64,000 nucleotides of DNA from a virus: the IMG/VR virus record IMGVR_UViG_3300027747_004417, one strand, 5' to 3'. Of this stretch, positions 15,901-37,440 are shown piece by piece. The notes beneath the pieces were generated by a model that was given only the letters and a program-made list of their open reading frames with translations, searched no databases and was not told where the DNA came from. Position numbers and translations under genes: made by a program. How positions within the stretch are numbered: the stretch's first letter is position 1; every line of letters starts with the position of its first letter.

Positions 15901-16200
15901 TGCATTGTCTGTGTCCGTTGATAACCAAGCTGGATAGTCATTTGTTCCTATCACTGCTATGGGCTCGGCTTCCCTAAAGTAAAACTCAGTTTGATATTTG
16001 TCATCTCCTACTTTTTCTTCGTATTTCCTTAAGTTGCCGCTCGAATAGTCTCTAGAAACAAAATAAATTGTTAGCCTGCTTACCTCGTAGGGATTAGACA
16101 ACAGAGAACCTCCTGCATTTGGCGTTTCTAGCTCAAATACAATTTTGTCTGTTATAGTTGGGTTCTCGCTTGTTTTTTTTTCATTCATAGTTGAACTCAA
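12976..16200 (-). CDS. Baseplate wedge protein (P2 gpI / T4 gp7-like), 1074 aa
   Basis: LLPYLSNYFG..RWRGQIKRAVPLYKKKGTKGGLSEAL motif; follows the gp6-like gene. Confidence 0.7.
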   Translation of the reverse strand: MSSTMNEKKTSENPTITDKIVFELETPNAGGSLLSNPYEVSRLTIYFVSRDYSSGNLRKYEEKVGDDKYQTEFYFREAEPIAVIGTNDYPAWLSTDTDNAIIENTDTCKFKYIWEPKKAREGDYFICWTWKPLPAGDSLSNQTRFYLESDTQTTTSLPSHYTKENKYETLLDRYLPEMFKTQISSGDVSPDVISRTNKSIASGFKSLEDLANQLVDLQDANSLHEFLLPYLSNYFGLKLKTDDPTRWRGQIKRAVPLYKKKGTKGGLSEALGHIGAKLEGFTHLWQVISSKTWQESFVFDGENGEFTLEKNPIFPAESSNFEFWFRSAQNIEWEEINETDFDFYTEDGVTKFSWVGTMPLVEGDEVRIVYKYREVNDPSEQDIENYIRLLPLIDMRDPKSIVKAKVKSGSNVISGLPLSSEFRVGQKISCPEFANVVQILEIINFSTVKVSAAATSTNNNTFVAFRSFENPPKNWNVRALREDDPMFNVLIPERNPFFDPLVFGKIRTEFPYSENIYHMEEYNGSIRDSLDPCDIDKSFTDPCYACISSSYDIDVEVEQISDEKIEEVKGTILENTPFHAMMHTCNFIGGINEFVEPSQESLEMLVNYLGSDFMVAGHAQNYFFRIMLNYPTEGLTRSDLADEESVYEGSGTCSNEEVVVFCPDVVLSSCGIAPNEKSFIEVKEPSAISGEYTVVLSSDGNTLKITDPSSLEPINVIDSPFDGGVLSSSAFTFDVSNKVDPINGSLCNILQDGLFYITDEDYDFTLGVDEGQIKTLKDVENSTALYAWDVELSYGTFPIKDIVNGQIVLDYDSLLPSSNTTGETWTLKDNGVSVGGSNKGRIIVQKRGVVTSLDTSFHPIKNILFRDNYYQKIDEVEYHVSGVVENTNDKYYLVNYDQGDMNGVTIDMREKVVKDKIGYLSFKGLKLQSGATESVLGIQNGSSYSGGDLLENNSFKENFIVIINGIAYWIYEINDDVVTLAGSPQYFGLSGSSVNFEVLKYNKKEATIIGQKTYLPTHTFPTLDRDGRAIITSDILENGSNTVSGLSKGGVEDLVNQEEEVSFTVEYKKRENNE

Positions 16201-17734: not shown

Positions 17735-18176
17735 TTATACCTCCTGGTAAAGGCACTTCCAGTGTTAGCTCTTGAACGCTTTGTATCTCATTTGGATCAA
17801 CAAAAATTATTCTTATGGCTAATAAGTGGTCGATTTGGCTTTTGTCATCTAATGGATTTAAAGCACCTTCATCGACTTTAGTTAGTACTTCTACCTGTTT
17901 TAATGCTATTCTTGGTTCCCACTGTTTAATTGAGTTAATTATTACATTTCTTGCCTCTGATATTAGCCTTGGATCGTTGGGCTCAAAAATAAGCTTTTTA
18001 AGGGGTGTTCCAAACCTCGGATTCATAACTCTTTCACCCGGATTGGTCAATAAAAGTATTAATAAATCTGATTTTATTTGATCGACGTCCTGTGACTGAG
18101 AAGAAAAGTATCCTCTTACTGTTTTTTGTACTGGATAAGGGAAACCTAAAAATTTAGCCATACTATCTCCTAACAC
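17727..18176 (-). CDS. gp25/GPW-like baseplate wedge (sheath initiation) protein
   Basis: IKSDLLILLLTNPGERVMNPRFGTPLKKLIFEP..IKQWEPRI; ATG at 18161 is a likely start. Confidence 0.92.
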   Translation of the reverse strand: MLGDSMAKFLGFPYPVQKTVRGYFSSQSQDVDQIKSDLLILLLTNPGERVMNPRFGTPLKKLIFEPNDPRLISEARNVIINSIKQWEPRIALKQVEVLTKVDEGALNPLDDKSQIDHLLAIRIIFVDPNEIQSVQELTLEVPLPGGIND

Positions 18177-20263: not shown

Positions 20264-20272
20264 AATTTGACC

Positions 20273-21799
20273 TTATTTCTTTGGTTCTGCTGCACTTGCT
20301 TCCAGCGGATATTCGTTTCCGCATCCACCTATAGGTTCTCCTGCAGGTATGTTTACGTTTGGAGCATCCAATCTAACCTTAAATGTAGTAACATAGGACC
20401 CCATATTTATTTGATGATCTACTCCCAGTATCATCCACCTCTTGTTGCTTAATATTGGGTTGCAGTCTGGTTGTTGTATCCATGTGCAGCTACCACCGTC
20501 AATTCCGGCACCCTCGCCTGCTCCGCCTTCAAAATAATATGGATCTATTACTACTATTGACATAAATCTTCCTGTATAAAATACTGGATTTACATATTTT
20601 GGATCTCCAAATATTTTTAGTTCTGCTTCTATTGGTTTTATCATCTGTTCCCAAGGCTTATTGGCTTCATTTTGTATGGAGAAGCTTTCCATGGTTTTTT
20701 CTCCCGATTCATTTGGATCACTCCACAACCATCGGTCATTAGGTTGATTTTGTGAGGTTTGTGTTCCTGTATTTTGTATTGGCTGCATTTCTTTTGATTT
20801 TACATCTTTACCTGAATTTCCACTTGCAGAACCAGCTGAGGTTCCGCCGCTTCCGGCATTGGCCCCTAAAGGCCATTCAACCTGAGGAGCAAACGATAAA
20901 ACAGGAGACTTATTTCCGCCATTAACTATAAAAGTTCCTATGTTGAGCTCCGTGTCACAACATTTTTTGTTAACAGGATCTTCTTGAAATACTATCCTTT
21001 TTTCGCATGGATCCCATACTATTAATACTCCAAGTTTCTCTTGGGTCTTTACATTGTTTAACCATTTTCTAGCACAAGCCACATTGCTTTCTTGCTCTGG
21101 AGCCCAAACAGACTTTGGACCTTCTGGTCCGCCATCGGAGTTTGCAAAGTCGAACTCACCGGTTTTGTCTTTATTCAAAAATATTGGGGTTCTGGACTCT
21201 GGATCTTTTGTAGTGAATAGATCTCTTAGAGCTGTTTTTAAAGGAGCTTTGTTAGATTCGTCGCCAATAGCTTTTTCTAGTCTTGCATCAAAAGACCTTA
21301 CAAAAATATCCTGTGCTTCAAATATAAACTTGATAATTCCATTATCAAAAGTAGTTTGAATGTTTTTAGGCAAAAACCACAGCTCACCACCACCGTCCCC
21401 GCAGCTACTTCTAGATTCATTTGTAATTACATCGGTGTTACCATCGCATGTTTTAACCACCCAACCAAATTTTGCTTTACAAGAATTAACACCCGTAACC
21501 GCCGATAGAGCCTTTGTTATATCAGCGTTTAATCCTTTGACTATATTTTTGTATAGAATTCCTCCTTCGTCTACTATTTCTACTTTTATTCCACACCCAC
21601 CTTGTCCCATTGTAGTTCCATACTGAAAAGACTGTATTGCAGCATGGTTCTGGACCTCGGGTGAAGATCGATTACCCGTCAATAAAACAACGTTTCCCCC
21701 AACTGTTAGTTCTACATAAGGAGTGTAAACAGCACCGTCTATTGGATGCTGCTCTTCGTTACACATATATTCTGATATACAAGATATTTCTGGTTCCAT
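20273..21799 (-). CDS. Baseplate hub protein (gp27/gpD-like)
   Basis: Lies between LysM/gp53 and spike genes; EAELKIFGDP and WMILGVDHQI..YVTTFKV motifs. Confidence 0.6.
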   Translation of the reverse strand: MEPEISCISEYMCNEEQHPIDGAVYTPYVELTVGGNVVLLTGNRSSPEVQNHAAIQSFQYGTTMGQGGCGIKVEIVDEGGILYKNIVKGLNADITKALSAVTGVNSCKAKFGWVVKTCDGNTDVITNESRSSCGDGGGELWFLPKNIQTTFDNGIIKFIFEAQDIFVRSFDARLEKAIGDESNKAPLKTALRDLFTTKDPESRTPIFLNKDKTGEFDFANSDGGPEGPKSVWAPEQESNVACARKWLNNVKTQEKLGVLIVWDPCEKRIVFQEDPVNKKCCDTELNIGTFIVNGGNKSPVLSFAPQVEWPLGANAGSGGTSAGSASGNSGKDVKSKEMQPIQNTGTQTSQNQPNDRWLWSDPNESGEKTMESFSIQNEANKPWEQMIKPIEAELKIFGDPKYVNPVFYTGRFMSIVVIDPYYFEGGAGEGAGIDGGSCTWIQQPDCNPILSNKRWMILGVDHQINMGSYVTTFKVRLDAPNVNIPAGEPIGGCGNEYPLEASAAEPKK

Positions 21800-21801
21800 T
21801 T

Positions 21802-22140
21802 TTAAGCCAATAAAGAGTTAGGAAGTTTAAGATTTAATCCGGCCTTAAAGTCAAATATGTCTTTTATGTTGTTGTACTCCATGACACGCCACCAAAAGTC
21901 AGGTGTTCCGTAAACTTTTGCTGATACTAGATCTGGTCTGTATTCGGTTCCTGGTGTGACTACATAAAACTTTGTTTTAAGACCTGTGTTTTTTGGTTGA
22001 TTATTTTGTTTCTTTTTATAAGTTGCGAAAGTTAGAAGTTTGTTTTCTGTGTAGTACACAACGTTAGAACTAGCATATCTGCTAGATACGGGAACAAATC
22101 TTCTAGGGTCTATGTTTGTTTCTTCTATATGATTAGCCAT
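21802..22140 (-). CDS. LysM-like / gp53-like baseplate (tail X) protein
   Basis: YVVTPGTEYRPDLVSAKVYGTPDFWWRVMEYNNIKD..GLNLKLP. Confidence 0.8.
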   Translation of the reverse strand: MANHIEETNIDPRRFVPVSSRYASSNVVYYTENKLLTFATYKKKQNNQPKNTGLKTKFYVVTPGTEYRPDLVSAKVYGTPDFWWRVMEYNNIKDIFDFKAGLNLKLPNSLLA

Positions 22141-22142
22141 TT

Positions 22143-22661
22143 TTAGATATCTCCTATTATGTCTGAAGTTATTGGCAAACTAGTTTGGTCATATACCACA
22201 TCAAACTGAAGGTCTATATCTAGCTTGTACGGTATCATCCAAGATTGTTCCCAAGGAACTGATGTGTCAAATTTTATACTGTAGCTTTTAAGCACACAGC
22301 ATAACTCTCCACCCGATAACAGACTTCCGCATTTAAGCCTACACAGTGGAGGAGGATGTCCCGACATATTTTCGGGATAGCAAGCACTCTGCAAGGTTCT
22401 TATGTAACCCAGATAAGTCTCAGGGTCCTCTGTCTTCTTTATAATCCAGTGACATGTCCAAGATATTGTTCTTAGCTCTCCGTTCGCAAATATAACGAAA
22501 GGAGATGTTCTTCCTATTGCGTTTTCATTCGTGTAATTTGCACTTTTTGAGTCAGAAATGTCCGGCAATATTGTCATTGGTATTGTTGCGTAATTTACCA
22601 CTTCAATATAGCATTCATCTATTTCTACTAAATCTCCGCCTGGTATTGTAGCTTTTGTCAT
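22143..22661 (-). CDS. Tail tube initiator (gp48/gp54/GpU-like)
   Basis: ISDSKSANY..IGRTSP..RTISW..PPLCRL..LKSYSIKFD; immediately follows the tape measure. Confidence 0.65.
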   Translation of the reverse strand: MTKATIPGGDLVEIDECYIEVVNYATIPMTILPDISDSKSANYTNENAIGRTSPFVIFANGELRTISWTCHWIIKKTEDPETYLGYIRTLQSACYPENMSGHPPPLCRLKCGSLLSGGELCCVLKSYSIKFDTSVPWEQSWMIPYKLDIDLQFDVVYDQTSLPITSDIIGDI

Positions 22662-22675
22662 TTAACCTCTAATTA

Positions 22676-25600
22676 TTATGAAACTGCTTTTGCTCCTAGA
22701 TTTACTGTTGCTTTTCCAGGTCCTTGACCAACATTTCCTGATACTCTTCTATAATAGTTAGTTGGCTTGCCAACTACATTCTTGGGTACGGTGCTACCTG
22801 GTTCTCCACCCTCTCCGGTACTTGCCTGCGACTTTGGCTTAAGCATTTCTAGGAATTGTTCAAATAGTTCTTTCATTTGGTTTAGTACCACTGTTTGTTC
22901 TTCTGTTTCTGTGGTAAGAGCTCCTAGCTCTGGCGACACCACCTCTGATTTAGCTGGCGATAGCGAAGCTTTGTCTTTCATCAACTTCTGTTCTATGTTG
23001 GCTCTGTTTGCCGCAGTCGGAGAAGCTGTGCTTACAGCCACTGGAACTGTAGTTGATGGTTTGCCCCCAACAGATTCTACTTGGCTTGGAATGGCTGCTT
23101 CTAAGCTGGTTCCCGGCATCGCGTTGCCTATATGAGATTCTTTTATAGATCCATAGGACAAGTTTCTTCCTGAAACAACTTCGTCTATGTGCCTAATTGA
23201 TTCTGGTGATGACAATTTACCTGATAAATTCTCAGTTGGTGCAGGATGATATTTTTCGCTCCATTCATCCGTGAATTGACTCTTAAAGTTTGTTGGAGTC
23301 ATTTTTCTTGTTTCTTGAACGGCCACATCAGACAAGGAGCTTTCTACTTTATTCGTTGGTGCTTCAACATTAGCTGCTAAAGAGCTTTCTGCTTTAGCTG
23401 TAGGTGTTTCAACGTTAGTTGTAGATTCTTTTGATGTTGCTGATTTCTTAGTTCCTCCTCCAAACAAGCCCTCTACTATCCATCCCGCATTTACGGCTGA
23501 GGCGGCTGCGTATAAAGCATTGTACATAGCACCAGGGATGGCGGATAAAAGAGAGGTTATGCCATCGAATATTGTTTTGCCTAACCAAACGGGTAGATCA
23601 AAGAATATGGCTTTCATTCCGCTGATTATTAAACCTCCCAATAAAGATGGAAGCGTAACAAACACAGCTTTTATTCCGTTAAGCACTACTGATCCCAATG
23701 ATCCCAAAGCAGACAAAAGCATTGTTGGAAGCTTGACAAACACCGCTTGCAACCCAGCTAATGCTAAAGAGGCTAAAGAACCCAAACCAGACATTATCAT
23801 TTGAGGCAAATCACTCAAAACAAACTTAAGTCCACCTAGTACAAATTTTCCTATCATTTTAGGAATGCCCATAAAAACCATCTTCAAACCAGATAATATT
23901 ATAGAACCTAAGGAACCTAATCCGCTTAAAACTAGATTTGGCAAATCAACAAACACGGCTTTTAATCCGGATATTAATAAGCCGCCAATCATTACTGGTA
24001 GATCAACAAATACGGCTTTTAATCCGGATATTAACAAGCCGCCAATCATTACCGGTAGATCAACAAATACAGCCTTTAGTCCGGAGTTGATTGTGTTTCC
24101 CATAGAACCGATGTCAAATACACCCTTTTCTTTTCCTTCTGCTTTGCCCGCAGATGCAAGAACTGCCTTCTCAGTGTTCTGGACTGGCGATACAGACGTG
24201 GCGTCCGTTTGTTTGCTCTGCACTAAAGAGGACTCCACAGCAGCGGTTGGAGAGGTTACTGATAATCCCGTTTCTTTTTTCTGTGCCAATGATGATTCTA
24301 TTTCTGACGTGGCTGAAACGGTCCCTGGTCCTGGGGCTGGGTGGTACTTTTCACTCCACTCATCTGTGAATTGACTCTTAAAGTTTGTTGGAGTCATTTG
24401 TCTTGTTTGAGTTTCTTGAATAGCAGCGGACTCAACAGTCGCTATTGGTGTAGCAACTTGTCCAATCGCTGGAATAGCAGCGGACTCAACAGTTGCTGTT
24501 GGTGTAGCAACTTGTCCAATCGCTGGAAGAGAGCTTAGTATTTCTAACATTGGAGCAACAGAACCTAAGTTTATTGCTACTTCTATTAGTCTGTTAAGAC
24601 CGGATTCTATTCCGTCTATGTTAGCTAGGCTTTCTTCAAAGGCAGATAAAGCTCCTGTTATAGTTGTAAGAGCCTGTGCAAAAGTATTTAAGTTGGGTCC
24701 TGCGTCTGCAAGTCTTACAATATTATCTAAGGTTGAACTGTTTCCCCCAAAGAAGCTTATCCAACCAGCAGCAGCAGTTGCTGCAGAGAAAGCTATTATG
24801 GCTCCGGACAGAACAACAAGTCCTCCTGCTATGCCAACAAGGCCCGCAGCTTTTTCTAGGCTCACCGCTCCTAAAAAGTTAACCATTCCATCTGCTACCG
24901 CAGTTATTATTCCGCTTATTCCGCCCAACACTGTCGATATAACACCTCCAAATGCTGCAACTAAAGGAGACAAAGTACTTAATGCATATCCAAGAGGTAT
25001 AAGGGCAGCACCCAGCCCTGCTATCGCTAGTATGCCTAGCCACATCATGGGGTTAGCAGCAGCTGAGCCAAAGCTTGTCAAACCTGTTGACAATGCAGTC
25101 AAACCAGAAGTAACCAAACCAGACATTGCTCCTAGTATGGCTAATCCTGGTAAAGCTGGTAACAGACCAAGTAAGCCTATTGAAGATAGTAATATGGCTC
25201 CTGCTCCTAGTAAAACCTTGCCGCTGGCCATGGACTTTAGACCCTCTGCTAGACCTCCAAGAGATGCTGCAATCTTTTTTCCGTCTGTTTTCTCTATTAG
25301 TTTGGCTCCAAGGAATCCAGGTATCATAGCCGTCAAACCAATTCCTGTTGGAATTAAGTTAAGAGCTCCTAAGAAAGATTCTTTATTTGCAAAGCTTTTA
25401 AGTCCTTCTGCTAAATTTTTGAGTGCTTCTTTGACTCCTTCAAAATTGCCCTTTACTGATTCACCTGCTTCACCAATCTTCTTAACGTTCTCTACAGGGG
25501 CTACTGCTGCTGTGGGAGCTCCAACTGAGGCGACTGCACCCTCTGGACCGGCCTTCTTGGAGAACAAGGACTTAACAGCACCACCTGCTGAACTGATTCC

Positions 25601-28600
25601 ACCTTGTGCTTTTTCTTTTAGTCCCTTTAGGGCTCCGCCCGCTAAGGTCATACCTTTCTTTCCATATTCTTTTATGCTACTGAAAGCATTGCCTGCTATT
25701 TCTGATATTGATTTTCCTTTGGTCAAAGACATAAATTGAGAAGTCATTCCTCTTGAAAGAGACTTAAATACTCCTTCTCCTGCTTCCATGGATCTGGTAA
25801 ATCCTTTGGTCAGAGGTGCAAAAGAACTGGAGAAGAATCCTGACATTCCGGAGAATGCTTTGCTTGCATATCCTCCAACAACATTAAACGCCTTAGCGGC
25901 ATTGTCCTTCAATGATTGTGGCACATTATTACTTATGTAGCTGAACGCTTTAGATCCTCCGTCTTTTATCTGGTCAAAAGCTCCCTTTGCTATTTCTGAT
26001 ATTGGCTTGCCCTTAGTAATAGACATATATTGTGACGTTATGCCACGAGAAACAGATTGAAACACGCCAGCACCAGATTCCATGGATCTTGTGAAGCCCT
26101 TTGTCAATGGTGCGAATGAACTAGACAGATAGCTCCCAGCACTAGATAAGGCTTTTCCACCTACGTCCTTTATTGTTCCAAAAGCTTTTGCTGCGTTATC
26201 TTTTACAGATTGTGGTATCTTATTGCTTATGTAATTAAATGCTTTGATACCACCATCCTTAACACTAGAGAAAGCCTTACCTGCATTATCCTTCCAAGAT
26301 TGTGGTATCTTGCTTTTTATAGTTTCGAATGCTTTGATTCCGTTGTCTTTTATCTGGCTGAAAGAATTAGATATTACTTCTGATACTGGCTTGCCTTTGG
26401 TTATGGACATGTATTGTGATGTTATGCCTCTAGACAAAGACTTAAATATACCTTCACCCGCTTCCATAGACCTTGTAAACCCCTTTGTTAGAGGGGCAAA
26501 GCTACTTGATAGATATCCTCCCACACTTGATATGGCTTTACTACCTTTTTCTTTTATTACTTTAAAAGCTTCTGCTGAAGTATCTTTTACCGATTGTGGT
26601 ATTTTATTGTTTATTGTAGAAAATGCTTTGCTTGCATTTTCTTTCCATGATTGAGGTATGTTACTGTTTATATAATTAAATGCTTTTACTCCGCTGCTCT
26701 TAATCTGTTCGAAAGCTCCTTGAGCCATCTCCGACACAGACTTTCCTTTTGTGATTGACATGTACTGTGACTGAATTCCTCTGGAGAGAGATGTAAATAT
26801 TCCTTCTCCTGCATTCATCGATCTTGTGAAACCCTTGGTTAGTGGAGCAAAAGAACTTGAGAAATAGCTTGACATTTCACTGAATGCTTTTCCTGAACGA
26901 GATTTAACGCCCTCAAAAGCAGATGTAGACTTATCAACAATAGACCTAGGCAGATTATTTTTTAAGCTTCCGAACAAACCGTCAGCAGATTCTGCGACAG
27001 CTCCACAACAATCTGCTGGATTAGATTCAAAAGAAGGAATCATTGAAAACAATCCTTCTCCAATAGAATATAATGTTCCTAGTATGCCCGACCCTTCGCT
27101 TGCTGCTGCCCCCTTAGCGGGTGTATTGTTTTTTGAGCTACCGCTTACAACCTTAACAATATCGGCCATGGATTTTTTAAATGATTCCAACATTTTTGAT
27201 ATAGCAGGGGCTAATGCAACACCTAAGCCAACAGATAGAGCACCTTTTCCTATATCAAGAAAAGTGTTTGTAACAGGAGCATCACCTTCGTCAAAGCTGC
27301 CTGCTTCTCCACGAGATATTGATGAAGTAAAAGCTTTTTTGCCGCTTTTAGTTATCTGGCTCAAAATTTTCTTTAGGGTTGAATTTATTTCATAAAGACC
27401 TGATATTATTCCACTTGAGTATTTTTCTATACCACTAAGAGGAACAACAGCCTCAGGTCCAGCTTCGCCTATAACACCTAATGTTGCTTTGCTAACAACA
27501 CCACCTTCTGCAAATTTTGGAATATATTCTGCCTCAACTTTTGCTTCACCGTGGTCTTTCATCCATTGAGCCTTAGACTTATACTTAACCCCAGATAGCA
27601 CCTCAGGTCCTATACTGTAATTTTCACCTGAAACTCCTTTTATTGCTTTAAGTATCTCTGCCTTAGCTAACATTGTGGCACTCTCTATGGCATCGTTTCT
27701 TTCTTCTGCATCATTGAACTCATACCTTTCTACAGCCTCAACTCTTATTGGTTCTTTCTTTTTACTTGCACCTTTAAGAGCCTCACTCGCCTCTGCTGTC
27801 TTGGGTTGAGGTGTGATTTGTCCCTTTTTAGGAGTTGCAGCTGCTGGCAAGGCCGATCTTCCTGGTCCACCTGCACCAGCATTGATTCCTTCGTTTACGG
27901 CTCTCACCTCTAGTGCATCATCATGATTTTCTTTAGACCATCTTGCTACAGCTTTAACAACTTTCTTCTCCATGTCCACTTGAGTGTCAACCTCAACACC
28001 AGACAAGTCTGTTCTTCCCGTCTTCTTGGATAGTGCAACTATCGCAGCAGCTTCGGCCTGTTTCTCGGCCATGTTTATTGCCATCTCGGATCTGCCTCTT
28101 ATGGCCTTTTGAACTTCTGCTTCAAACACCTTAGGATCAGATACTTTTTGGACCCCTTCTTTCATTGAAACTATGCCGTCTAGGTCCATAGGCTTTATTC
28201 CAAGAAAGGCTCGCCCAGCTAAGCCCATAGTGCTTGCTACTTTTTCTATTATCATGATGAACTCAGTCAGTTGATCATTGACCTCAGATAGCTCATCAGA
28301 ACTTGGTAAGAACTTTTGTATTGGTTTTACAATACCCTCATTTATAATGTTTGCCATTGAAATGAAGTTTTTACTTAATTTGCTTATCTTGAATCCGTTT
28401 ATTATTCTCCATAAGAATCCCTTTGAAAACAGGCTTATGGAGCCACCTAGTTCATCAAACATTTCTGGAATGGCTGACATGGAGGCTGTTAATACTCTTA
28501 ACTTTACTCTGACTCCGTCCATCTCTTTGGCATCTGGCACCAAAGCGTTCACAGGGTTTATTATGCCTACTTTTAGGAAGCTTATAATGCTGTAAAACCA

Positions 28601-31600
28601 ACCAGAAAACTTTTCTATTTGTGAGGCTATAAGTTCTGCTGGGGCTTCCCTAAGGCATTCTCTCTCATTTAACCCAACAAACATTTGTGCAAGATTTTTT
28701 ATTATACTTGACATTGAGCCTACAACGTTGCTCATTGCACTCAATGTCGAACCAGCTTTTCTTATTTCTTTTGGATCCCCGATAACATTGTTTATTGGGT
28801 TTACTACTCCATCTTTAAGAAAATGGGCTATCTCAAAGAACCATTTTGCAAATTTTTCTTTGCTGTTTATTATTGCTTCCATCGGGACTTCTTTGCTTAG
28901 GTCTTGCCCCGATTCAACAAGAGGCACAAAACCCTTAGACATTCCTAAGATTACCCTAGGCACTGAGCTTACTATATTGTTCATTGCTGATAGAGTAGAA
29001 GAAGCTTGTCTTATCCCCTTCGTATCAGGAAAAACCTCTTTAACTGGTATAACAATTCCGTCTCTTAAAAATACGGCTATCTTCTTGAAGTAGTCTGCAA
29101 ATAAATTTTTATAAGATAATATTTTGTCTATTGGGAAGTCGGTGTCTAGCTTGTCTACAGTTTCACCACTCATCATTCCCATGACGCCTGTTAGGTTCTT
29201 TATAATGGGAACTACAGACGCTACTATGTTTGACATAGCTGACATGGTTTTTGAAGATCCTGCTAAGTCTATTCCATCAAGCTCTTTTTTAACTGGGAGT
29301 GCTATTCCGTCTCTCACAAATGCTGCTATTTCTTTAAAGTAAGCAGAAAAAGCTCCTTTAGAATCTGCTATTTTTTTCATTGGTGTTTCACCAAAGAAGT
29401 CATCTTTATCAACCGCTAAAGACACAGCACCGACCAAACCCTTGATCACAACCGGAACGCCAGCCAGTAGATATGCCGTTTGCTTTAGGTTGTTTGCACC
29501 AACTGTTATCTCCTCAGAAGGAAGCTCCAACGACGGCTTCAGCAATCCTGAGAGTACAAAATCTTTTGCCGTTTCTAGGTACTTTGAGAATTGATCCTTG
29601 TTAATTCTTATTTTTTCTAATGGTGCTTTTTCAAATATTGATTTGCTCTCCATCAAAGAGAACACTCCGCTTAAGTTATCCAATATTAGTTTTATCCCAT
29701 AAATAAAACACCCTATATCTTTAAGTTTGGCCCCAGCCTCAACCAAACCTTCCGCATTGGTTATTTTCTTTATGGGCTCAAGAATTCCAGAGTTAATGAA
29801 ACCCGATACTCCAGCAAAATATTGTGTAAACTTATCCTTGTTTGCACTTATTGTTTTCATTGGGGAAGAAGAGAAAAATCCATCTGTGGTTAAACCTATC
29901 ATTGACTGCAAAGAGCTCATAGAAGACGATGTCTCTTTCAACAGTTGCGATACCCCAACTAACTTCTTAGCTGATTCTTTTAACTTAGATCCATCATCTA
30001 TGTTTGAAATTGGACCCACTATTCCATCTGTTATAAACTTAGAAATAGAAACAAAGAATCCATTGAACTTTGGTATAGCCCCTTTTATTGCTTCTACGTC
30101 TGATCCACTAAACCAACCTGATTTTGTTATCGGTACAATTTTTTCTCTTATTACAGCTACTGTCTCACCAACTTTTTGGAATATTTGTGATATAGAACTC
30201 AAGTTTTTAACAGTGGCTTTTAGTTCGCCAACATTTTTAAATGAACTGCTGACATTCTGTATCATTGAGTTTATGAATTGAGCCAATACTGGAAAGAACT
30301 TGTCCATTTCTTTTTTGGCCTTAACCATTTGTTCTATTGGAGAATCTACGAACCAACCGCTCTTTGTTAGTGGGTTTATTCTATCTTTCAAATGGTTTAG
30401 AACGCAACTAAACACCTCAACAACACCCGCTACTTGTTGTAAGCCTTTAACAGCAGCTTTAGCCTCTTGTGGTTTAACTTTGCTACCAACTTCTTTAGAG
30501 AAATCTGTTATAGAAGATACGTAGTTTATTATTGGGAGCTTAAGCTCTCCTAAGGCTTTCACTCCTTTATTCATTGCGTCTGGTATGTTGGTAGCCCATA
30601 GCCAGAACCCTTCACTCGTTTTTACTTTTACTAACTTATCTTTTGTTGCTACAATCTTTTCTGTTACATCACCTGATGCTCCAAGAATTTCTGCAACTCC
30701 TCTTGCCATGGATGCTGCTTGTCTAACATCTAACTTTCTACCTACTTCTGAAGAGAAGCCTTTTATTGTATCTACATATTCTATTATTGGTCCCGACAGC
30801 TCTTTGAGTGCTTTTACTCCTTCTCTAGACTTTTTGACATAGTCTTTTCTAAACCAGCCCCATCCTGTGGAGGTTTTTATCTTGCTTAGTTCTTCTCTTG
30901 TTTCAAGAACCTTTTTTGTAACTTCCCCCGTTCCAGATATTATTTCTGCAACACCATTAGCCATAGAAGCTGCTAGTCTTGGGTTGAGTCTTCTTCCCAG
31001 TCTCTTAGAGAACCTCTTTATTACTGCTACGTAGCTTAGGACTGGTTCACTCATCTTTTCCAAAGCAACGGCACCAGAATTCATTTGCTTGACGTAGTTT
31101 GTTCCGAACCAACCCCACTCTTTGTATTTTATTCCGCTAAGATTTTCTTTATTTTTAAGGATTATTCTTGAAACGCCCCCTACAGCACACAGTATATCTT
31201 CAACTCCAACTGCCATTTCAGCAGCCATCCTGGGGCTTAGAGTGCCTCCCACTTTAGATGAGAACGCTTTGATTGCTGCAACGTATCTTGTTATTGGCCC
31301 ACTTAAATTCTTTAATGCGTCTACTCCACTATCAACCATGTCTCCTACTGTTTTTCCACGTAACCAATTAAAAAATCCTTGGTACTTAGACATCTTCTTT
31401 AAAGGCTCAGCAGATTTGAATATAGAATCTGTTATAGAGGCACAAGACTGGAGTATTGAGCTAACTCCTTCTCCCATTGGCTTAGCTTCTCTTGGATCCA
31501 CTATTCTTCCAACTACACCTGAAAACAACTTGACTGCTGAAACGTACGCTATTATTGGAGCCATTAAATCCTTGAGGGCCCTGACTCCGTCCCACATGCG

Positions 31601-34600
31601 ATCTGATATTTTTGAGCCTATAAGCCAATTCCAAAATCCTCCGTAAACTGGCATAGACGCCAATGAAGTGGAGGCGGATGCTACATTTTTAGTTATATCA
31701 CCGACAGACTGAAGGATTGTGGCAATACCCTTAGACATACTCTCTGCTTCCGCAGGATTTATAGTTGTTCCTATCTTGTTAGATGCTTCTTTTACCGCTC
31801 CTATAAATCCGACTATTGGGTTTATTAGAGCATTAAATGCCCTAGTGCCTAACCACATAAGAGGTATAGCCAACATAGCAGATGCGAAGAATAGGCCTAA
31901 AATAGATAGCCCAGCAACGGAAGCCAAAATAGATAGTGCTATTTTAGCTGCTCCGCCAAGTATGGAGGAAACTCCTTCTACCACTTTTTTTATTTCATCG
32001 GAAGACAGCAAAGAACCAGCGATTGAACCAGCCATTTCTATTATCGAAGAAGCTAAAGATAGAACAACTGGTGTTAACGCATAAAGAGCTATTGCTCCAC
32101 CTATCATTGCTGGTATTGCAGCTGTAGTTGCAGCTGCAAGGTAACCTAGTCCAGCTAGTCCAGCCATTGCAGCCATCACCGATACAGCTATTGCACCTGC
32201 TGCAGCTATTATTCCTGCAACTTGATAAGCGGTTTTAGCTGCTGTTGAAGCATCCATTTCTCTTGTTGCTAATATTCCTTTCATCATATTAACTAAGGCA
32301 CTAGCTAGAACTACTATTGCCGGAGTAAGTATAAAAAGAGCAGCGGCACCGGCAGCCATTGGCCCAACATATGCCCAAGCTGTGGGTAACAATAGACCCA
32401 AGCCAGTTAATCCTGCTAAGGCTCCAATTATAGCCACAGATATAAGTGCGGTAGACGCTATCAATGCAGCAACGTCGTAAGCAACCTTAGCTGCTTTTCC
32501 TGCATCTACTCCCATTATTCCCAATATACCACTAATTAGTTTGTTTAGGGCTGCTGCTAAGAAAACTATAACAGGAGCTAGAATCATTAAGGCCATACCG
32601 CCTTTTATTATTTCTGGCACAAACTTTGAAGCATAATCATCTAAAAGGCCTAAGCCATATAAACCGGCCATAGCTCCAATTACCGCCCCAGCAATTGCCG
32701 CCGTTCCGGCTATCAGTGCCGCAACTTTTCCTGTAACCGCTCCTATCGTTGATGCATCAAGTCCCATTATGCCTAATATAATCTGAGAAATCTTAACTAT
32801 AGTGGCACCCAAAAGCACTAATCCTGGCCCTAGAATTAGGAGTGCTTTTGCTCCTTTCCACATCAAGTCTTTTATTTTGTTTGGGTCTTTTAGTAGATCG
32901 TTGTCTGATAGCTTTTTAAATCCTTCTAAAGCCTCACTAGCAGCTAGTGTTAACGCCCCCGCAGCCGCTACTATGGCCGCTACGGTTCCAGCTGTTTCTG
33001 CAACGGTCGATAAGTCTAAACCAAAAGCTCCAACAATCATTTGAGCTAGTTTAACTATAGTTGCACCCAATAGAACCAAAGCGGGTCCAAGTATAAGAAG
33101 GGCTGCTACTGTTGATGCTAGGTCTTCACTAAATATTTCACTTATCTTTGGAAATTTAACTATTTCTTGTTCACTTGTTAAAAGCTTGTAAGCTCCATAG
33201 CCAGCGGCTGCTATGGCTGCACCAGCAGCAGCTAAAGCCCCTACTGTACCAGCAGTCTGTATTATTTTTGTAGCGTCTAGATTAAATGCATCCATGATCT
33301 TTCCAGATAAGAATACTATGGCTGATGCCAAGGCTACTGCACCGGCTGCTAGTACTAATATCCCTGCAGCGGTTTTTGCCATTTCCTTGCCACTAGAAAT
33401 TAAATCATTAAGATCTATTCCAGCTACCTTTGGAACTTCAACTTGACTTATTCTTTTTTCTCTGGAGTCTATGTAAGACTGCTCAAGTTTAATTATATTT
33501 TTTGTTCTTTTTCCATTAGAAACTTCACTTATAAGTTCTTTTTTCTCTATCTTATTCAGGCCTTGCTGCTGCTTTATGTTTTTTATTTCTTGCTTCTTTG
33601 CCTGTCTCCAAACAGCAGGACTTACTCCCATGGTTTCTGCTTTTTGTTTGGCAGCTTGTCCCGAAGCTTTCCGAGCAGCTATTTCTTCTGGGGAAAGCTT
33701 TGCTCTTTTTGCTGCTTTACCTGCGGTCTGTTCCACTACTTGGGCTGGGGCACTCGCCTCAGGAGGCACTATCTTTCCCTCTTGTACAGTTATTGGTGTA
33801 AGGCCTTCTTGTATAGAAGGCATTGCTTTTTCTTTAGTTTGCTCGACCGTTTGTTTAGCCCCAGAACAAACACAGTCTGCTATTCTTTTCAATGTATCAA
33901 GCATAGAATTGTTTACACTTAGCAATTGGTCTTGCCAAGAGCTAGCAACTTCTTTAACAGTGTCTGGTCTTTTAGATCCTACAACCTTCGCAGCAGTTTC
34001 TTCTGCTTTTGAAGTAACTGTAGTCGCTGCCTTGCTAGCTTCATCAACTTTTATTGTTCCTCCAAGATCCGCAGCTACTTTTGGTCCAAATATAAAATCA
34101 CGTAAGTCTGCGAAGGCTTTTGTAATAAACCCTCTTGGGTCCTGCATCGTGTCTTGGCCGCTGGGATCTTTGTATCTAAAGAATGTGTTAAGGAACGCAG
34201 CTGTGTCTTTTACAAACTCTTTGCCTTGTGAGAAAGATGACGCTACTCCGCTTATCGTTCCAACAAGATAAAGTAACTCTTTTCCTATAAAACTACTGAA
34301 CAAACCGGATATCAAACTCTTGCTTATATCTCTTAAAGTATCATTCATTTGAAGCAGCGTTTGATTCATTGAGCTTAATGGGTCTAGCTGGGCTTTTTGT
34401 GCTGTTGAAAGTTCTTGTTCTGCTTTTGATAGCTCTGACGTTAATTCTCTAAATTTTGTTTCGTCTTTAAGGGCGTCTTCTATTTTCTTAGAATCTATAG
34501 AAAGCTCTTTCTTTCCAGCCTTCTTGAGCCCTTCATTTAAAGTATTAACAGCCGTTTTTAGAGATGATCTGGCTACGTCTCTCTCGCTTGTCCATGCTTG

Positions 34601-36901
34601 CCCTATTGCTGCTATGTCCTCTTCAAACTCTCCTCTTCTCTTTCCAAACTTGGCTAAAGCCTCATCCATGCTTTTCGTGCCTTTAGCAGCTTCAGAAATA
34701 GCAGTTAATGGGGCTAGGGCCGCTGTTAGTTTGAGTCTTCTTTCGTCCTCAGCTATTTTGGCTTTTTCTTCTAGCGTAAGGTTTTTTGCTTTTTCTTTAT
34801 TTAACTCTGTTAGTCTTTCTGCTAGAGTTCTTGACTTATTTTCTAGTGCTTCAATAGCACCAACTAGTTCTCCTGATTCCATTCCAAACGCAGCCTTAAA
34901 CCTCATGTTCAATAGTCGTTTATCCAGTGCAGACATATTTTCTAAGCTTGCTCTCATTTCTTCTGCATTACTTCCTGCTAAACCTAGAGCTCTTGCTTGC
35001 TGCATTAATCCACTATTAAATTGCTTTATATTTTTATTGCTTTTTAGTATCTCACCATTCCACATTTCTTGTGTTAATCCGGCTCTGGCTGCTGCATTAG
35101 CAACTAAGGCTAAGGTTTGTGTGTCTGCTTCTAGAAAACCTGATGTTGAGCTTAAGGCTCCTAATAATTTGCCTCCCTCCACTCCTACTTTTTGAAACTC
35201 AGCCTGAAGCCCTATGACATTAGAAACACTTCCTGCCGTTGCTGTGCTTGCCTTTCTCATTTGATCAACAAACTGCTTGCTTGAATCAACAGCTTGCTTT
35301 AATCGATCCCCCACCACCCCAGAATCTCTTCCTACGTTTCTAATTCCCCTTCCCACAGCAGCTATTTGATCTTCATTGAACTTAAAAGAATTGCCGAACT
35401 CTAAAAATTGTTCCCCAAGAGAACCAGCCTCTACTCCTATTTGCTTTTCTGTGTTTAACTGTGCACTAACTAGGGAATTAAGCTTTTTCTGGTCTCTCAA
35501 TCCAGACTTAGTTCCTCTTAAAAATGCTTCTTGAAATTTTTCTCTTGCAACACCTGTTCTTATGGAGCTTTTTCCTATGTCTTCATAACTTTTTTGTAGA
35601 GATCGCGTTTCTCCTGTAACCCCAGCTGTTTCATATGCTGCCGCTCTTATATCTTGTACAAACTTTCTTTCTTTGTCTATTAATCCTTCTATGGCTGTAT
35701 TGAGAACCTCAAACCCTAATGTAAATTTTTCTAAAGCTGATATGGTTCTTATCTGAAGGTCTCTATTTCTTTGCTCTATGTCTTCTCTTCTTCTTTCTTG
35801 TCTTCCCGAAGCTTTTAGCCTTCTCGCTTCTAGTTGTATTATGGATTCCATAACACCTTTTTTCTCTTGGTCTGTTTTAAGAGAATCATCATCAAACTTT
35901 CTGCCAGATCTGGCATATGCTGCTCTGAACTTTTCGTTGTTCTGGTATGCGTCTTCGAAGCTTAACCCGCCAATTTCTTTGCGAAAGTATTTGACTATGT
36001 CATCCACATTTGTCGAATAAGATCCAGCCCATGATTTAATTTGTTTATCCGTTAAATCTGCTGCTCCTACTAGTCCTTTGAACGCTTTGCCGGAACGCAA
36101 ACTTAGAAAAAAGTCTTTTGCGTCTTCAAGACTGCTTATTTGAATCTCAAAAGGTTCTGCTCGATCTAATCTTTCCATGAATTCTTGATATTCACTCTCA
36201 TCAAAGCTTCTTATACGAGGCTCTCTTGGAACTCCAAAATCCACACTAGAATTTCGCTCTGTAGCACTTGCGGAAGCTTTTTTTGCGTCATCAAAAAAGG
36301 AATCACCTTTTATTTCACTTACTATGTCGCTTGTTTTTACAACGTCCGCTACGGACATTTTTTCTGCTATTTTTGTTAGGGTATCATATACTTGGTGAAG
36401 CCATCTTTCACAGTAAACGTCATGTGTGTACCCAGATCCTTTTTTGCTAAATACTTTATAGAGTCCTTCTGTGGACTCAGAGACTATTTCTCCTTGCTTG
36501 AAATCCTTCTTAAAAAAGTTTTTAAGACTAGCCATGAACTTTTCTGGAAATGTTTCTTCTTTTTGTTCGCTTTTTTCTCCTTTATCCTTCTCTTGTCCTT
36601 TTGTTCCTTCTTTCTTTTGCCCAATATCAGACAGCAGCGATTTTATTTCTTCTACAAGGTTTGCTTGCTCGCTTATGTCTTGACTATGTCCTTTTACATA
36701 TTTTTCAAACGCCTGCACCAGTGGCCCGTAGTCAAATTGTCTATCTCCTGATGCTCCTTCTGACGGCTTCTCTGTATTGCTAATTGGTTTGGCAGGACCT
36801 ACCTTGCTTTTCATGAGGGTCCCGATAAGACCCTTCAGCTCACCAATGCTCATATTGGTGCTATTGATTTTTCTACCCAGGTTGTCTAAAGCTTCTGTCA
36901 T
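22676..36901 (-). CDS. Giant tape-measure-like protein (4741 aa)
   Basis: Upstream of tube-initiator/LysM/hub/spike genes; A/K/S/G-rich helical composition, hydrophobic Ala-rich blocks, and the motif FAEGGVVSKATLGVIGEAGPEAVVPL near aa 3130. Confidence 0.8.
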   Translation of the reverse strand: MTEALDNLGRKINSTNMSIGELKGLIGTLMKSKVGPAKPISNTEKPSEGASGDRQFDYGPLVQAFEKYVKGHSQDISEQANLVEEIKSLLSDIGQKKEGTKGQEKDKGEKSEQKEETFPEKFMASLKNFFKKDFKQGEIVSESTEGLYKVFSKKGSGYTHDVYCERWLHQVYDTLTKIAEKMSVADVVKTSDIVSEIKGDSFFDDAKKASASATERNSSVDFGVPREPRIRSFDESEYQEFMERLDRAEPFEIQISSLEDAKDFFLSLRSGKAFKGLVGAADLTDKQIKSWAGSYSTNVDDIVKYFRKEIGGLSFEDAYQNNEKFRAAYARSGRKFDDDSLKTDQEKKGVMESIIQLEARRLKASGRQERRREDIEQRNRDLQIRTISALEKFTLGFEVLNTAIEGLIDKERKFVQDIRAAAYETAGVTGETRSLQKSYEDIGKSSIRTGVAREKFQEAFLRGTKSGLRDQKKLNSLVSAQLNTEKQIGVEAGSLGEQFLEFGNSFKFNEDQIAAVGRGIRNVGRDSGVVGDRLKQAVDSSKQFVDQMRKASTATAGSVSNVIGLQAEFQKVGVEGGKLLGALSSTSGFLEADTQTLALVANAAARAGLTQEMWNGEILKSNKNIKQFNSGLMQQARALGLAGSNAEEMRASLENMSALDKRLLNMRFKAAFGMESGELVGAIEALENKSRTLAERLTELNKEKAKNLTLEEKAKIAEDERRLKLTAALAPLTAISEAAKGTKSMDEALAKFGKRRGEFEEDIAAIGQAWTSERDVARSSLKTAVNTLNEGLKKAGKKELSIDSKKIEDALKDETKFRELTSELSKAEQELSTAQKAQLDPLSSMNQTLLQMNDTLRDISKSLISGLFSSFIGKELLYLVGTISGVASSFSQGKEFVKDTAAFLNTFFRYKDPSGQDTMQDPRGFITKAFADLRDFIFGPKVAADLGGTIKVDEASKAATTVTSKAEETAAKVVGSKRPDTVKEVASSWQDQLLSVNNSMLDTLKRIADCVCSGAKQTVEQTKEKAMPSIQEGLTPITVQEGKIVPPEASAPAQVVEQTAGKAAKRAKLSPEEIAARKASGQAAKQKAETMGVSPAVWRQAKKQEIKNIKQQQGLNKIEKKELISEVSNGKRTKNIIKLEQSYIDSREKRISQVEVPKVAGIDLNDLISSGKEMAKTAAGILVLAAGAVALASAIVFLSGKIMDAFNLDATKIIQTAGTVGALAAAGAAIAAAGYGAYKLLTSEQEIVKFPKISEIFSEDLASTVAALLILGPALVLLGATIVKLAQMIVGAFGLDLSTVAETAGTVAAIVAAAGALTLAASEALEGFKKLSDNDLLKDPNKIKDLMWKGAKALLILGPGLVLLGATIVKISQIILGIMGLDASTIGAVTGKVAALIAGTAAIAGAVIGAMAGLYGLGLLDDYASKFVPEIIKGGMALMILAPVIVFLAAALNKLISGILGIMGVDAGKAAKVAYDVAALIASTALISVAIIGALAGLTGLGLLLPTAWAYVGPMAAGAAALFILTPAIVVLASALVNMMKGILATREMDASTAAKTAYQVAGIIAAAGAIAVSVMAAMAGLAGLGYLAAATTAAIPAMIGGAIALYALTPVVLSLASSIIEMAGSIAGSLLSSDEIKKVVEGVSSILGGAAKIALSILASVAGLSILGLFFASAMLAIPLMWLGTRAFNALINPIVGFIGAVKEASNKIGTTINPAEAESMSKGIATILQSVGDITKNVASASTSLASMPVYGGFWNWLIGSKISDRMWDGVRALKDLMAPIIAYVSAVKLFSGVVGRIVDPREAKPMGEGVSSILQSCASITDSIFKSAEPLKKMSKYQGFFNWLRGKTVGDMVDSGVDALKNLSGPITRYVAAIKAFSSKVGGTLSPRMAAEMAVGVEDILCAVGGVSRIILKNKENLSGIKYKEWGWFGTNYVKQMNSGAVALEKMSEPVLSYVAVIKRFSKRLGRRLNPRLAASMANGVAEIISGTGEVTKKVLETREELSKIKTSTGWGWFRKDYVKKSREGVKALKELSGPIIEYVDTIKGFSSEVGRKLDVRQAASMARGVAEILGASGDVTEKIVATKDKLVKVKTSEGFWLWATNIPDAMNKGVKALGELKLPIINYVSSITDFSKEVGSKVKPQEAKAAVKGLQQVAGVVEVFSCVLNHLKDRINPLTKSGWFVDSPIEQMVKAKKEMDKFFPVLAQFINSMIQNVSSSFKNVGELKATVKNLSSISQIFQKVGETVAVIREKIVPITKSGWFSGSDVEAIKGAIPKFNGFFVSISKFITDGIVGPISNIDDGSKLKESAKKLVGVSQLLKETSSSMSSLQSMIGLTTDGFFSSSPMKTISANKDKFTQYFAGVSGFINSGILEPIKKITNAEGLVEAGAKLKDIGCFIYGIKLILDNLSGVFSLMESKSIFEKAPLEKIRINKDQFSKYLETAKDFVLSGLLKPSLELPSEEITVGANNLKQTAYLLAGVPVVIKGLVGAVSLAVDKDDFFGETPMKKIADSKGAFSAYFKEIAAFVRDGIALPVKKELDGIDLAGSSKTMSAMSNIVASVVPIIKNLTGVMGMMSGETVDKLDTDFPIDKILSYKNLFADYFKKIAVFLRDGIVIPVKEVFPDTKGIRQASSTLSAMNNIVSSVPRVILGMSKGFVPLVESGQDLSKEVPMEAIINSKEKFAKWFFEIAHFLKDGVVNPINNVIGDPKEIRKAGSTLSAMSNVVGSMSSIIKNLAQMFVGLNERECLREAPAELIASQIEKFSGWFYSIISFLKVGIINPVNALVPDAKEMDGVRVKLRVLTASMSAIPEMFDELGGSISLFSKGFLWRIINGFKISKLSKNFISMANIINEGIVKPIQKFLPSSDELSEVNDQLTEFIMIIEKVASTMGLAGRAFLGIKPMDLDGIVSMKEGVQKVSDPKVFEAEVQKAIRGRSEMAINMAEKQAEAAAIVALSKKTGRTDLSGVEVDTQVDMEKKVVKAVARWSKENHDDALEVRAVNEGINAGAGGPGRSALPAAATPKKGQITPQPKTAEASEALKGASKKKEPIRVEAVERYEFNDAEERNDAIESATMLAKAEILKAIKGVSGENYSIGPEVLSGVKYKSKAQWMKDHGEAKVEAEYIPKFAEGGVVSKATLGVIGEAGPEAVVPLSGIEKYSSGIISGLYEINSTLKKILSQITKSGKKAFTSSISRGEAGSFDEGDAPVTNTFLDIGKGALSVGLGVALAPAISKMLESFKKSMADIVKVVSGSSKNNTPAKGAAASEGSGILGTLYSIGEGLFSMIPSFESNPADCCGAVAESADGLFGSLKNNLPRSIVDKSTSAFEGVKSRSGKAFSEMSSYFSSSFAPLTKGFTRSMNAGEGIFTSLSRGIQSQYMSITKGKSVSEMAQGAFEQIKSSGVKAFNYINSNIPQSWKENASKAFSTINNKIPQSVKDTSAEAFKVIKEKGSKAISSVGGYLSSSFAPLTKGFTRSMEAGEGIFKSLSRGITSQYMSITKGKPVSEVISNSFSQIKDNGIKAFETIKSKIPQSWKDNAGKAFSSVKDGGIKAFNYISNKIPQSVKDNAAKAFGTIKDVGGKALSSAGSYLSSSFAPLTKGFTRSMESGAGVFQSVSRGITSQYMSITKGKPISEIAKGAFDQIKDGGSKAFSYISNNVPQSLKDNAAKAFNVVGGYASKAFSGMSGFFSSSFAPLTKGFTRSMEAGEGVFKSLSRGMTSQFMSLTKGKSISEIAGNAFSSIKEYGKKGMTLAGGALKGLKEKAQGGISSAGGAVKSLFSKKAGPEGAVASVGAPTAAVAPVENVKKIGEAGESVKGNFEGVKEALKNLAEGLKSFANKESFLGALNLIPTGIGLTAMIPGFLGAKLIEKTDGKKIAASLGGLAEGLKSMASGKVLLGAGAILLSSIGLLGLLPALPGLAILGAMSGLVTSGLTALSTGLTSFGSAAANPMMWLGILAIAGLGAALIPLGYALSTLSPLVAAFGGVISTVLGGISGIITAVADGMVNFLGAVSLEKAAGLVGIAGGLVVLSGAIIAFSAATAAAGWISFFGGNSSTLDNIVRLADAGPNLNTFAQALTTITGALSAFEESLANIDGIESGLNRLIEVAINLGSVAPMLEILSSLPAIGQVATPTATVESAAIPAIGQVATPIATVESAAIQETQTRQMTPTNFKSQFTDEWSEKYHPAPGPGTVSATSEIESSLAQKKETGLSVTSPTAAVESSLVQSKQTDATSVSPVQNTEKAVLASAGKAEGKEKGVFDIGSMGNTINSGLKAVFVDLPVMIGGLLISGLKAVFVDLPVMIGGLLISGLKAVFVDLPNLVLSGLGSLGSIILSGLKMVFMGIPKMIGKFVLGGLKFVLSDLPQMIMSGLGSLASLALAGLQAVFVKLPTMLLSALGSLGSVVLNGIKAVFVTLPSLLGGLIISGMKAIFFDLPVWLGKTIFDGITSLLSAIPGAMYNALYAAASAVNAGWIVEGLFGGGTKKSATSKESTTNVETPTAKAESSLAANVEAPTNKVESSLSDVAVQETRKMTPTNFKSQFTDEWSEKYHPAPTENLSGKLSSPESIRHIDEVVSGRNLSYGSIKESHIGNAMPGTSLEAAIPSQVESVGGKPSTTVPVAVSTASPTAANRANIEQKLMKDKASLSPAKSEVVSPELGALTTETEEQTVVLNQMKELFEQFLEMLKPKSQASTGEGGEPGSTVPKNVVGKPTNYYRRVSGNVGQGPGKATVNLGAKAVS
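23940..24085 (-). repeat. 57-bp coding tandem repeat (GLKAVFVDLPVMIGGLLIS), ~2.5 copies
   Basis: Seen directly in DNA and translation. Confidence 0.9.
24419..24528 (-). repeat. 54-bp coding tandem duplication (PAIGQVATP[TI]ATVESAAI x2)
   Basis: Two near-identical copies of tagcagcggactcaacag..gtagcaacttgtccaatcgctggaa. Confidence 0.92.
25700..26900 (-). repeat. Four ~100-130 aa imperfect repeats with core SSSFAPLTKGFTRSMxAGEG..SLSRG..SQYMSITKGK
   Basis: Cores near 26840, 26490, 26100 and 25810. Confidence 0.9.
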
Positions 36902-36924: not shown

Positions 36925-37440
36925 CTAATTAAATGGGGTTTCCTCGGTAGCGGTAGCTGGTGGATTAACTATGCGATTTATTTGATCCCGCACAGATTTT
37001 CTTATGGCTTCTATTTCGTTTGGATCTAGTGACCTAGACATAGCCATTGCGTTAACAATAAATCGGCAGTCGAGCTTTTTAAGCGATCCTATGCCTCTTT
37101 TTTTGTATTGTCGGAAGGCTGAGCTTATATATCCATTGTTTTTGATAGATTGATACGTAAAATTAGGATTTTGGCAGACAGATACGTTGTTATTTGGAAA
37201 AATTAACTTTTTTATGACTGGAAATGTCAGATAATGCAAATTAATGCCTCTTATGTATAGTCCTTTGTTTGGCTGTGCATTGACTGGATAGTCTGGATCT
37301 GTGACTAAAACTAGTGGAGAAGGATCATGCCCCGGCTTGTAAAAAGCATAGCTAAAAGAGATTAAGTCCCCTCTTGCTAGTGCCCCACTAAGGTTTGATC
37401 GATTGGAATTTAGGAGTATGTCTACAAATGGGGCGGCCAT
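36925..37440 (-). CDS. DNA end protector protein (T4 gp2-like)
   Basis: SFSYAFYKPGHDPSPLVLV..GINLHYL motif. Confidence 0.65.
   Translation of the reverse strand: MAAPFVDILLNSNRSNLSGALARGDLISFSYAFYKPGHDPSPLVLVTDPDYPVNAQPNKGLYIRGINLHYLTFPVIKKLIFPNNNVSVCQNPNFTYQSIKNNGYISSAFRQYKKRGIGSLKKLDCRFIVNAMAMSRSLDPNEIEAIRKSVRDQINRIVNPPATATEETPFN

Follow-up and report, generated by a model that had tools for sequence, protein, structure and literature searches.

How long can a phage tail tape measure protein (TMP) become, and does its whole length measure the tail? The question is raised by a 64,000-nucleotide (nt) stretch of the IMG/VR virus record IMGVR_UViG_3300027747_004417 (the window in what follows), in which one open reading frame (ORF) on the minus strand, at positions 22676..36901, encodes a protein of 4741 amino acids (aa). 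An earlier note on this DNA had described a single 14.2-kb ORF of this size, and the ORF listing and translation bear it out: the frame starts at ATG and has no internal stop. We conclude, with a probability of about 0.8, that the protein is the intact tail TMP of an uncultured freshwater huge phage, enlarged by repeat amplification and by an internal insertion. This identity is proposed because the gene lies before baseplate genes, the core fold matches that of TMPs, the motif and repeats match TMP families of PHROG, and the chain carries ~20 membrane-like helices. The tape-measure identity and the unusual length that had been claimed are both supported.

Organization of the protein

Conserved sequence is found at both ends of the protein: an N-terminal region that includes a TP901-like core, and a C-terminal module of ~110-150 aa. 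The middle that they enclose is highly extensible. Membrane-like helices were called by Kyte-Doolittle hydropathy and repeats were mapped by tiled self-BLAST. L005, used for comparison here and below, is an independent assembly from another sample with 96-98% nt identity to the window. The segments are:

22676..36901, minus strand: whole TMP gene (P0001, 4741 aa), from the ORF, its translation and purifying selection relative to L005
36362..36901, minus strand: N-terminal segment, aa 1-180, kept in close relatives (blastp map)
34202..35764, minus strand: helical N-proximal core, aa ~380-900, which defines the family (cluster search, AlphaFold2 (AF2), Foldseek)
aa 900-1165: charged linker
28145..33361, minus strand: tandem array of 21 in-register units of ~83 aa (79-87), aa 1181-2919
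31841-33361: array units 1-6, aa 1181-1687, hydrophobic, with ~12 membrane-like helices
aa 2920-3130: linker
27440..27505, minus strand: TMP C-terminal-type motif GG..GEAGPE..VP, aa 3133-3154
23132..27439, minus strand: lineage-specific insertion, about aa 3155-4590, from the motif to the terminal module
25562..27004, minus strand: four repeats of ~98-128 aa each (~117 aa), aa ~3300-3780
24731..25255, minus strand: hydrophobic helix block 2, aa ~3883-4057 (hydropathy)
aa 4130-4190 and 4496-4555: duplicated segment
23483..24127, minus strand: hydrophobic block 3 with ~45-aa repeats, aa ~4259-4473, holding a 57-bp x2.5 tandem repeat
22679..23134, minus strand: conserved C-terminal module, aa ~4590-4741, presumed baseplate-hub docking end

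The ~20 membrane-like helices are distributed over three blocks. The 15 array units that follow the hydrophobic ones (units 7-21) are amphipathic and feature conserved Pro/Gly breaks and aromatic turns.

Identification as a tape measure protein

The core domain is present in 391 representative clusters, always ~200-350 aa from the N-terminus, in proteins whose lengths form a continuous range of ~1,000-5,363 aa; membership of the window's protein in this family is observed directly. Its AF2 model (predicted local distance difference test (pLDDT) 86.9, predicted template-modelling score (pTM) 0.85) is all-helical, with many short helices. Of the top 50 Foldseek matches in BFVD about two thirds bear the name TMP or minor tail protein, the remainder being nameless, and one is annotated 'Tape_meas_TP901 core region'. 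The named matches have a probability of ~1.0 and E-values of 5e-5 to 4e-3, with template-modelling scores (TM-scores) to TMP models of 0.2-0.4. Among solved structures in the PDB Foldseek found nothing below E 1e-3. Neither nt nor protein matches were found in cultured phages, the sole match being a 33% identity of the core to the uncultured LR756511, and the one-per-species prokaryote genomes searched contained no relative that would point to a prophage or a host.

The motif GGVVSKATLGVIGEAGPEAVVP occupies aa 3133-3154 (window 27440-27505) and is followed by 1,587 aa, as the earlier note had read it (GGVV..GEAGPEAVVPL at aa ~3130, with ~1600 aa beyond). This region matches three PHROG families, all of TMPs, and RcGTA_tape, in each case at a C-terminal position of the profile: 1001-1091 of 1152 in phrog_1535, 928-968 of 1031 in phrog_12798, 1791-1846 of 1899 in phrog_10093 and 132-167 of 220 in RcGTA_tape. 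The repeats that follow the motif also match TMP families, phrog_1272 (E=1.4e-11) and phrog_1535 (E=1.2e-8) as well as phrog_3336 and phrog_167.

The position of the gene provides a further line of evidence:

12976..22661, minus strand: baseplate operon downstream of the TMP gene (family matches; same order in L001, L002 and L005)

After the TMP gene the operon codes, in this order, for proteins of 172 aa and 112 aa (baseplate PHROGs), 508 aa (hub candidate), 697 aa (spike with a Phage_base_V OB domain), 149 aa (gp25-like), 517 aa (gp6/J-like) and 1074 aa (P2-I-like). The profile of the hub candidate retrieved nothing in the PDB. The order is kept beside the TMP homologues on L001 (a 381-kb contig), L002 (a 390-kb contig) and L005. 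Baseplate genes following the TMP gene are the gene order of P2, Mu and pyocin-like systems, and sheath initiators of the gp25 type mark contractile systems. By these family matches the baseplate genes of the window are assigned to the contractile-tail type.

Several observations weigh against this identification or against an extreme tail. No TMP model of Pfam or NCBIfam matched the whole protein or ten segments of it, apart from RcGTA_tape, whose match to the motif (20.7 bits) is far below the curated cut-off of 220; the PHROG matches, with E-values of 1e-4 to 1e-11, are modest. A sheath, tube or frameshifted chaperone gene could not be recognised beside the TMP gene, nor a sheath or tube gene anywhere in the window, so that the canonical TMP slot claimed by the earlier note can be upheld only for its downstream side, where the baseplate genes lie. 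The 445-aa protein encoded further upstream was tried as a sheath and rejected (AF2 pLDDT 69, not sheath-like). The homologue in LR756511, a 595-kb huge phage, has only 1,640 aa. The array units have conserved Pro/Gly breaks and the core is modelled as short helices. The tail lengths are predictions that assume 0.15 nm per residue in a fully extended chain.

Some of these features would also suit a virion, ejection or inner-membrane-targeting protein of giant size that resembles a TMP in helical composition only, the true ruler being encoded elsewhere: the lack of a TMP match in Pfam or NCBIfam by sequence, the low TM-scores to TMP models, and tube and sheath genes that do not adjoin. Such an identity is highly improbable in view of the conserved position beside the hub genes, the presence of the TMP motif, and structural matches none of which carries a name other than TMP or minor tail protein. 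Fixed ends around a variable middle are, in addition, the pattern of a ruler, and the tail module of the window has no second long helical ORF.

Integrity of the gene and of its assembly

A frame of this size calls for scrutiny of the assembly. The exact 4741-aa protein is recorded on 3 contigs in the protein database, the longest of 198 kb, and base composition is even along the whole ORF. From aa ~1097 through the stop codon and into the baseplate genes, L005 and the window are collinear. The frame of L005 is open throughout, across core, motif, insertion and terminal module, with the sole exception of a 100-N scaffold gap that falls exactly on the 57-bp tandem repeat (23945-24085). This gap suggests copy-number heterogeneity at the repeat or a difficulty of assembly. 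Because 138 synonymous and 38 non-synonymous codon differences separate the window from L005 over 3,118 codons, the TMP frame is coding and under purifying selection. The synonymous excess is seen in the core and in the post-motif part alike.

The earlier note had raised the possibility of a mis-assembly or chimeric join; such a join, or a mis-assembly of repeats, would yield a falsely long ORF. Near-perfect 57-bp and 54-bp tandem copies inside the gene could invite such an error, and the N gap of L005 leaves the copy number at the 57-bp repeat uncertain by a few units. The probability of an artefact is nevertheless negligible: the identical protein is recorded on three contigs, L005 comes from another sample, the same architecture is found in L004 and in P0002 (74% identity, 5,363 aa), and purifying selection acts on core and insertion. 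Mis-assembly of the gene is effectively excluded because an independent assembly is collinear with it and relatives of 3,100-5,363 aa exist; the integrity of the gene itself is a direct observation.

Two shorter proteins, P0159 (1,189 aa) and P0161 (438 aa), were considered as evidence of a split gene and rejected, their ORF calls having been shortened by 100-N scaffold gaps. The near-perfect in-frame tandem repeats inside the TMP gene measure 57 bp x2.5 (92%) at 23945-24085 and 54 bp x2.1 (96%) at 24418-24528. The start of the gene (36902-36930, minus strand) is preceded by an A/T-rich leader without a Shine-Dalgarno sequence, while the next gene (start near 22661) has AGAGG. The missing Shine-Dalgarno sequence may reflect a host with weak usage of this signal, for example among Bacteroidota.

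The region beyond the motif

What, then, are the 1,587 residues that follow a motif of C-terminal type? The motif is usually found near the C-terminus of TMPs, as the earlier note had stated and as the TMP profiles and distant members of the family confirm; in the latter it lies 127-320 aa from the end. In the distant members P0012 (6,185 aa), P0122, P0115, P0089 and P0009, which keep the motif, the terminal module starts within 40-70 aa of it. The last ~110 aa are strongly conserved across members of 2,046 to 5,363 aa. In the BLAST map P0003 (3,161 aa), P0006 (3,112 aa), P0005 and P0008 align to aa 1-~3012 and, with nothing in between, to aa ~4590-4741, the insertion being absent from all four. 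Because the motif stands 40-70 aa before the terminal module in distant members, the ancestral layout is reconstructed as motif plus terminal module at the C-terminus, with ~1,440 aa inserted between them in this sub-lineage.

The insertion is carried throughout by P0002 and L005. L004 (~4,400 aa) has only aa ~3072-4138 of the intervening region, without aa ~4138-4598, and P0004 (4,404 aa) has a different insert. Four copies of the post-motif repeat are present in the window's protein and in L004. P0002 and the near-identical strain L005 have five, one more ~98-aa repeat. Hydrophobic helical blocks beyond the motif, which the earlier note had pointed out, are present at aa ~3890-4050 and ~4264-4440. 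Homologues of block 2 occur in TMP-like proteins of 900-2,500 aa (P0164-P0179); the repeats and block 2 recur together in P0165 (2,566 aa), which also bears the family core, and the ~45-aa repeats recur in P0170 and P0176. Repeat copy-number differences between strains, which are directly observed, and the near-perfect 54- and 57-bp duplications show that the insert is still changing.

Only aa 1-~3150 (~470 nm) might measure the tail, with the ~1,440-aa insertion as a non-measuring payload that is ejected, perhaps after release by cleavage near the motif, and that forms an unusually large membrane conduit or acts in the host. The C-terminal place of the motif in other TMPs would fit such a division of labour, as would the two extra hydrophobic blocks within the insertion and the several close relatives of ~3,100-3,800 aa that lack it and presumably have working tails. 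Processing of the TMP near its C-terminus occurs in lambda gpH and T5 pb2. We consider a payload quite unlikely. The terminal module is still at the extreme C-terminus, which places the insertion inside fixed ends; the insertion is built of TMP-type repeats that match TMP PHROGs and vary in copy number as ruler repeats do. It also holds no enzyme domain or catalytic motif by Pfam and by a search for DxDxD and HExxH. Over the 4741-aa protein as a whole there is no Pfam or NCBIfam domain and neither of these motifs, and the ten segments gave no match to lysozyme, transglycosylase or peptidase domains in Pfam, PHROG or NCBIfam.

The post-motif region is TMP material inside two fixed ends and not cargo beyond the C-terminus. 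The fusion of a TMP to a large cargo or channel region past its C-terminus, offered by the earlier note as one explanation of the length, therefore finds no support in that form, given the place of the terminal module and the lack of a detected enzyme domain.

Evolution of length in the family

Length comparison in related genomes, which the earlier note had advised, shows that clade relatives in the same slot have 3,100-5,363 aa; ORFs of 3,100-3,500 or more codons are also seen in additional IMG/VR relatives. The longer a member of the family, the more residues the ~83-aa unit tends to cover in it (r=0.65, slope ~1). The middle of the protein grew by two routes. In the first, an ~83-aa helical unit was amplified in tandem to 21 copies, the first six of which turned hydrophobic. 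In the second, ~1,440 aa of TMP-type material (four ~117-aa repeats and two hydrophobic blocks) was inserted after the motif in this sub-lineage. The array and the insertion themselves are read directly from the protein.

A long TMP is not a general need of huge phages, because the homologue of the 595-kb LR756511 is so short: TMP length is a trait of the clade and not a consequence of genome size. Among GenBank phage records, LR756511.1 (L003, uncultured) alone yielded a homologue of the TMP core, at 18279-23201. ORFs of 719, 742, 522 and 617 aa follow there on the same strand, a position like that of the baseplate genes here.

Tail length and mechanism

The lengths predicted at 0.15 nm per residue take the chain as fully extended:

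this protein, 4,741 aa: ~710 nm (upper bound)
this protein up to the motif only, ~3,154 aa: ~473 nm
clade baseline, ~3,100 aa: ~465 nm
P0002, 5,363 aa: ~800 nm

An extreme tail (~470-710 nm) is possible and is the leading reading. Because of the Pro/Gly breaks in the units and the short helices of the AF2 model, the chain may not be one continuous extended helix; packing as hairpins would shorten the tail and would make 0.15 nm per residue an overestimate. A tail of 300-600 nm, with parts of the chain folded as helical hairpins, has nearly an even chance. A tail of at least 600 nm can be put forward only tentatively, and one below 300 nm is unlikely. If extended, each ~83-aa repeat would span about 12.4 nm, roughly three tube rings.

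Characterised TMPs suggest, by analogy, how the protein would work. It would form an oligomer that docks by its C-terminus on the baseplate hub. Tube and sheath would then be assembled along this oligomer as far as its N-terminal end, the extended length setting the length of the tail. On infection and contraction the TMP would leave through the tube, and the ~20 hydrophobic helices of each chain would build a conduit across the envelope of the host. The proposed docking partners, the channel role and a ruler function that extends over the whole length are drawn from that same analogy.

A more far-reaching proposal, which we hold to be rather doubtful, is that this freshwater huge-phage clade builds contractile tails of ~0.45-0.8 µm (~0.7 µm in this member), the longest contractile tails known. 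The ~83-aa repeat would then be the unit of tail-length evolution, the 20-plus hydrophobic helices of each chain would make up a trans-envelope conduit of exceptional length, and strain-level gain and loss of repeats would tune length in nature.

Neighbouring genes and source of the DNA

Two genes upstream of the TMP gene are conserved, the 445-aa one very strongly:

36925..37440, minus strand: 171-aa gene directly upstream of the TMP gene, its position kept in L001, L002 and L004
40982..42319, minus strand: 445-aa gene ~4 kb upstream of the TMP gene (homologue search, AF2)

The 171-aa product has a weak PHROG match to 'DNA end protector' (E=3.6e-6). Judged by its position, it is possibly a chaperone of the TMP or of tail assembly. 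For the 445-aa and a 157-aa upstream gene, phmmer and profile searches against the PDB were empty, with no sheath or tube match. The N-terminal ~94 aa of the 445-aa protein are disordered and proline-rich, and in its C-terminal alpha/beta domain there is a weak resemblance to restriction endonucleases of the PD-(D/E)xK type (VIA Z 5.2, 5.0, 4.7). This protein has 982 homologues at E <= 1e-5, on contigs up to 602 kb, and the best 120 of the 982 are all at least 62% identical.

A P-loop kinase of the polynucleotide-kinase type (AAA_33; 39791-40489, plus strand) and a tRNA nucleotidyltransferase-like gene (43248-44723, plus strand) are also found a few kb upstream of the TMP gene; relatives have PolyA_pol and Metallophos genes at their place. 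The window has no tRNAs. The contigs that bear close relatives are 340-444 kb long, and the source is apparently a huge phage, lytic and uncultured, sampled in freshwater metagenomes.

Significance

The analysis identifies the TMP gene in a clade of uncultured freshwater phages of 340-444 kb. The protein is authentic and belongs, as an extreme case, to an unannotated family of huge-phage TMPs, which comprises at least 391 sequence clusters and goes unrecognised by curated sequence models. In another aquatic jumbo-phage lineage, whose kinship to this clade is not shown, the TMP could not be found (PMC12619734). The novelty is modest, giant TMPs (P23-45 gp96, 5,002 aa) and TMP growth by repeats being already known; the protein would be notable only if the contractile tail truly reaches ~0.7 µm. 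Length predictions of about 465, 710 and 800 nm are now available for members of 3,100, 4,741 and 5,363 aa, and the natural repeat-number variants offer a ready-made test of the 0.15 nm-per-residue rule in very long contractile tails.

Comparison with known systems

The closest counterpart in size is gp96 of the Thermus phage P23-45, a 5,002-aa TMP with an 800-nm tail, or 0.16 nm per residue (bioRxiv 10.1101/2022.12.01.518664). Both proteins are giant TMPs of the same size class with membrane-spanning segments, and searches found no similarity between their sequences. Gp96 differs in having an N-terminal virion RNA polymerase (DFDGD motif) and a metallopeptidase domain, while the present protein is without DxDxD or HExxH. 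P23-45 itself is a siphovirus, non-contractile and small in genome, whereas here the phage is huge and the baseplate genes next to the TMP gene are of contractile type. Cell-wall hydrolase domains embedded in the TMP, as in the mycobacteriophage TM4 type and the phiKZ gp181 type, were not detected here.

TMPs of the TP901 family (lactococcal TP901-1 type) resemble this protein in their N-proximal helical domain, whose predicted structures it matches, and in a common plan of core, repeats, hydrophobic segment and C-terminal motif. In length the present protein exceeds them four- to fivefold; it has three hydrophobic blocks where they have one, and no TMP model of Pfam or NCBIfam recognises it by sequence.

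Among contractile tails, T4 has a TMP of about 590 aa, gp29, in a ~100-nm tail. It is alike in being a contractile-tail TMP that docks on the hub, though no similarity to it was detected. T4 gp29 was reported to form the genome-translocation channel after contraction (bioRxiv 10.64898/2026.03.06.709160). Bacillus phage 0305phi8-36 (486-nm tail, gp146) and phage G have contractile tails of ~450-490 nm and long TMPs assigned by length and position, which show no detectable homology to this protein. The 3,100-aa members of the clade would predict a tail similar to that of 0305phi8-36, and 4,741 aa would predict a contractile tail ~1.5x longer.

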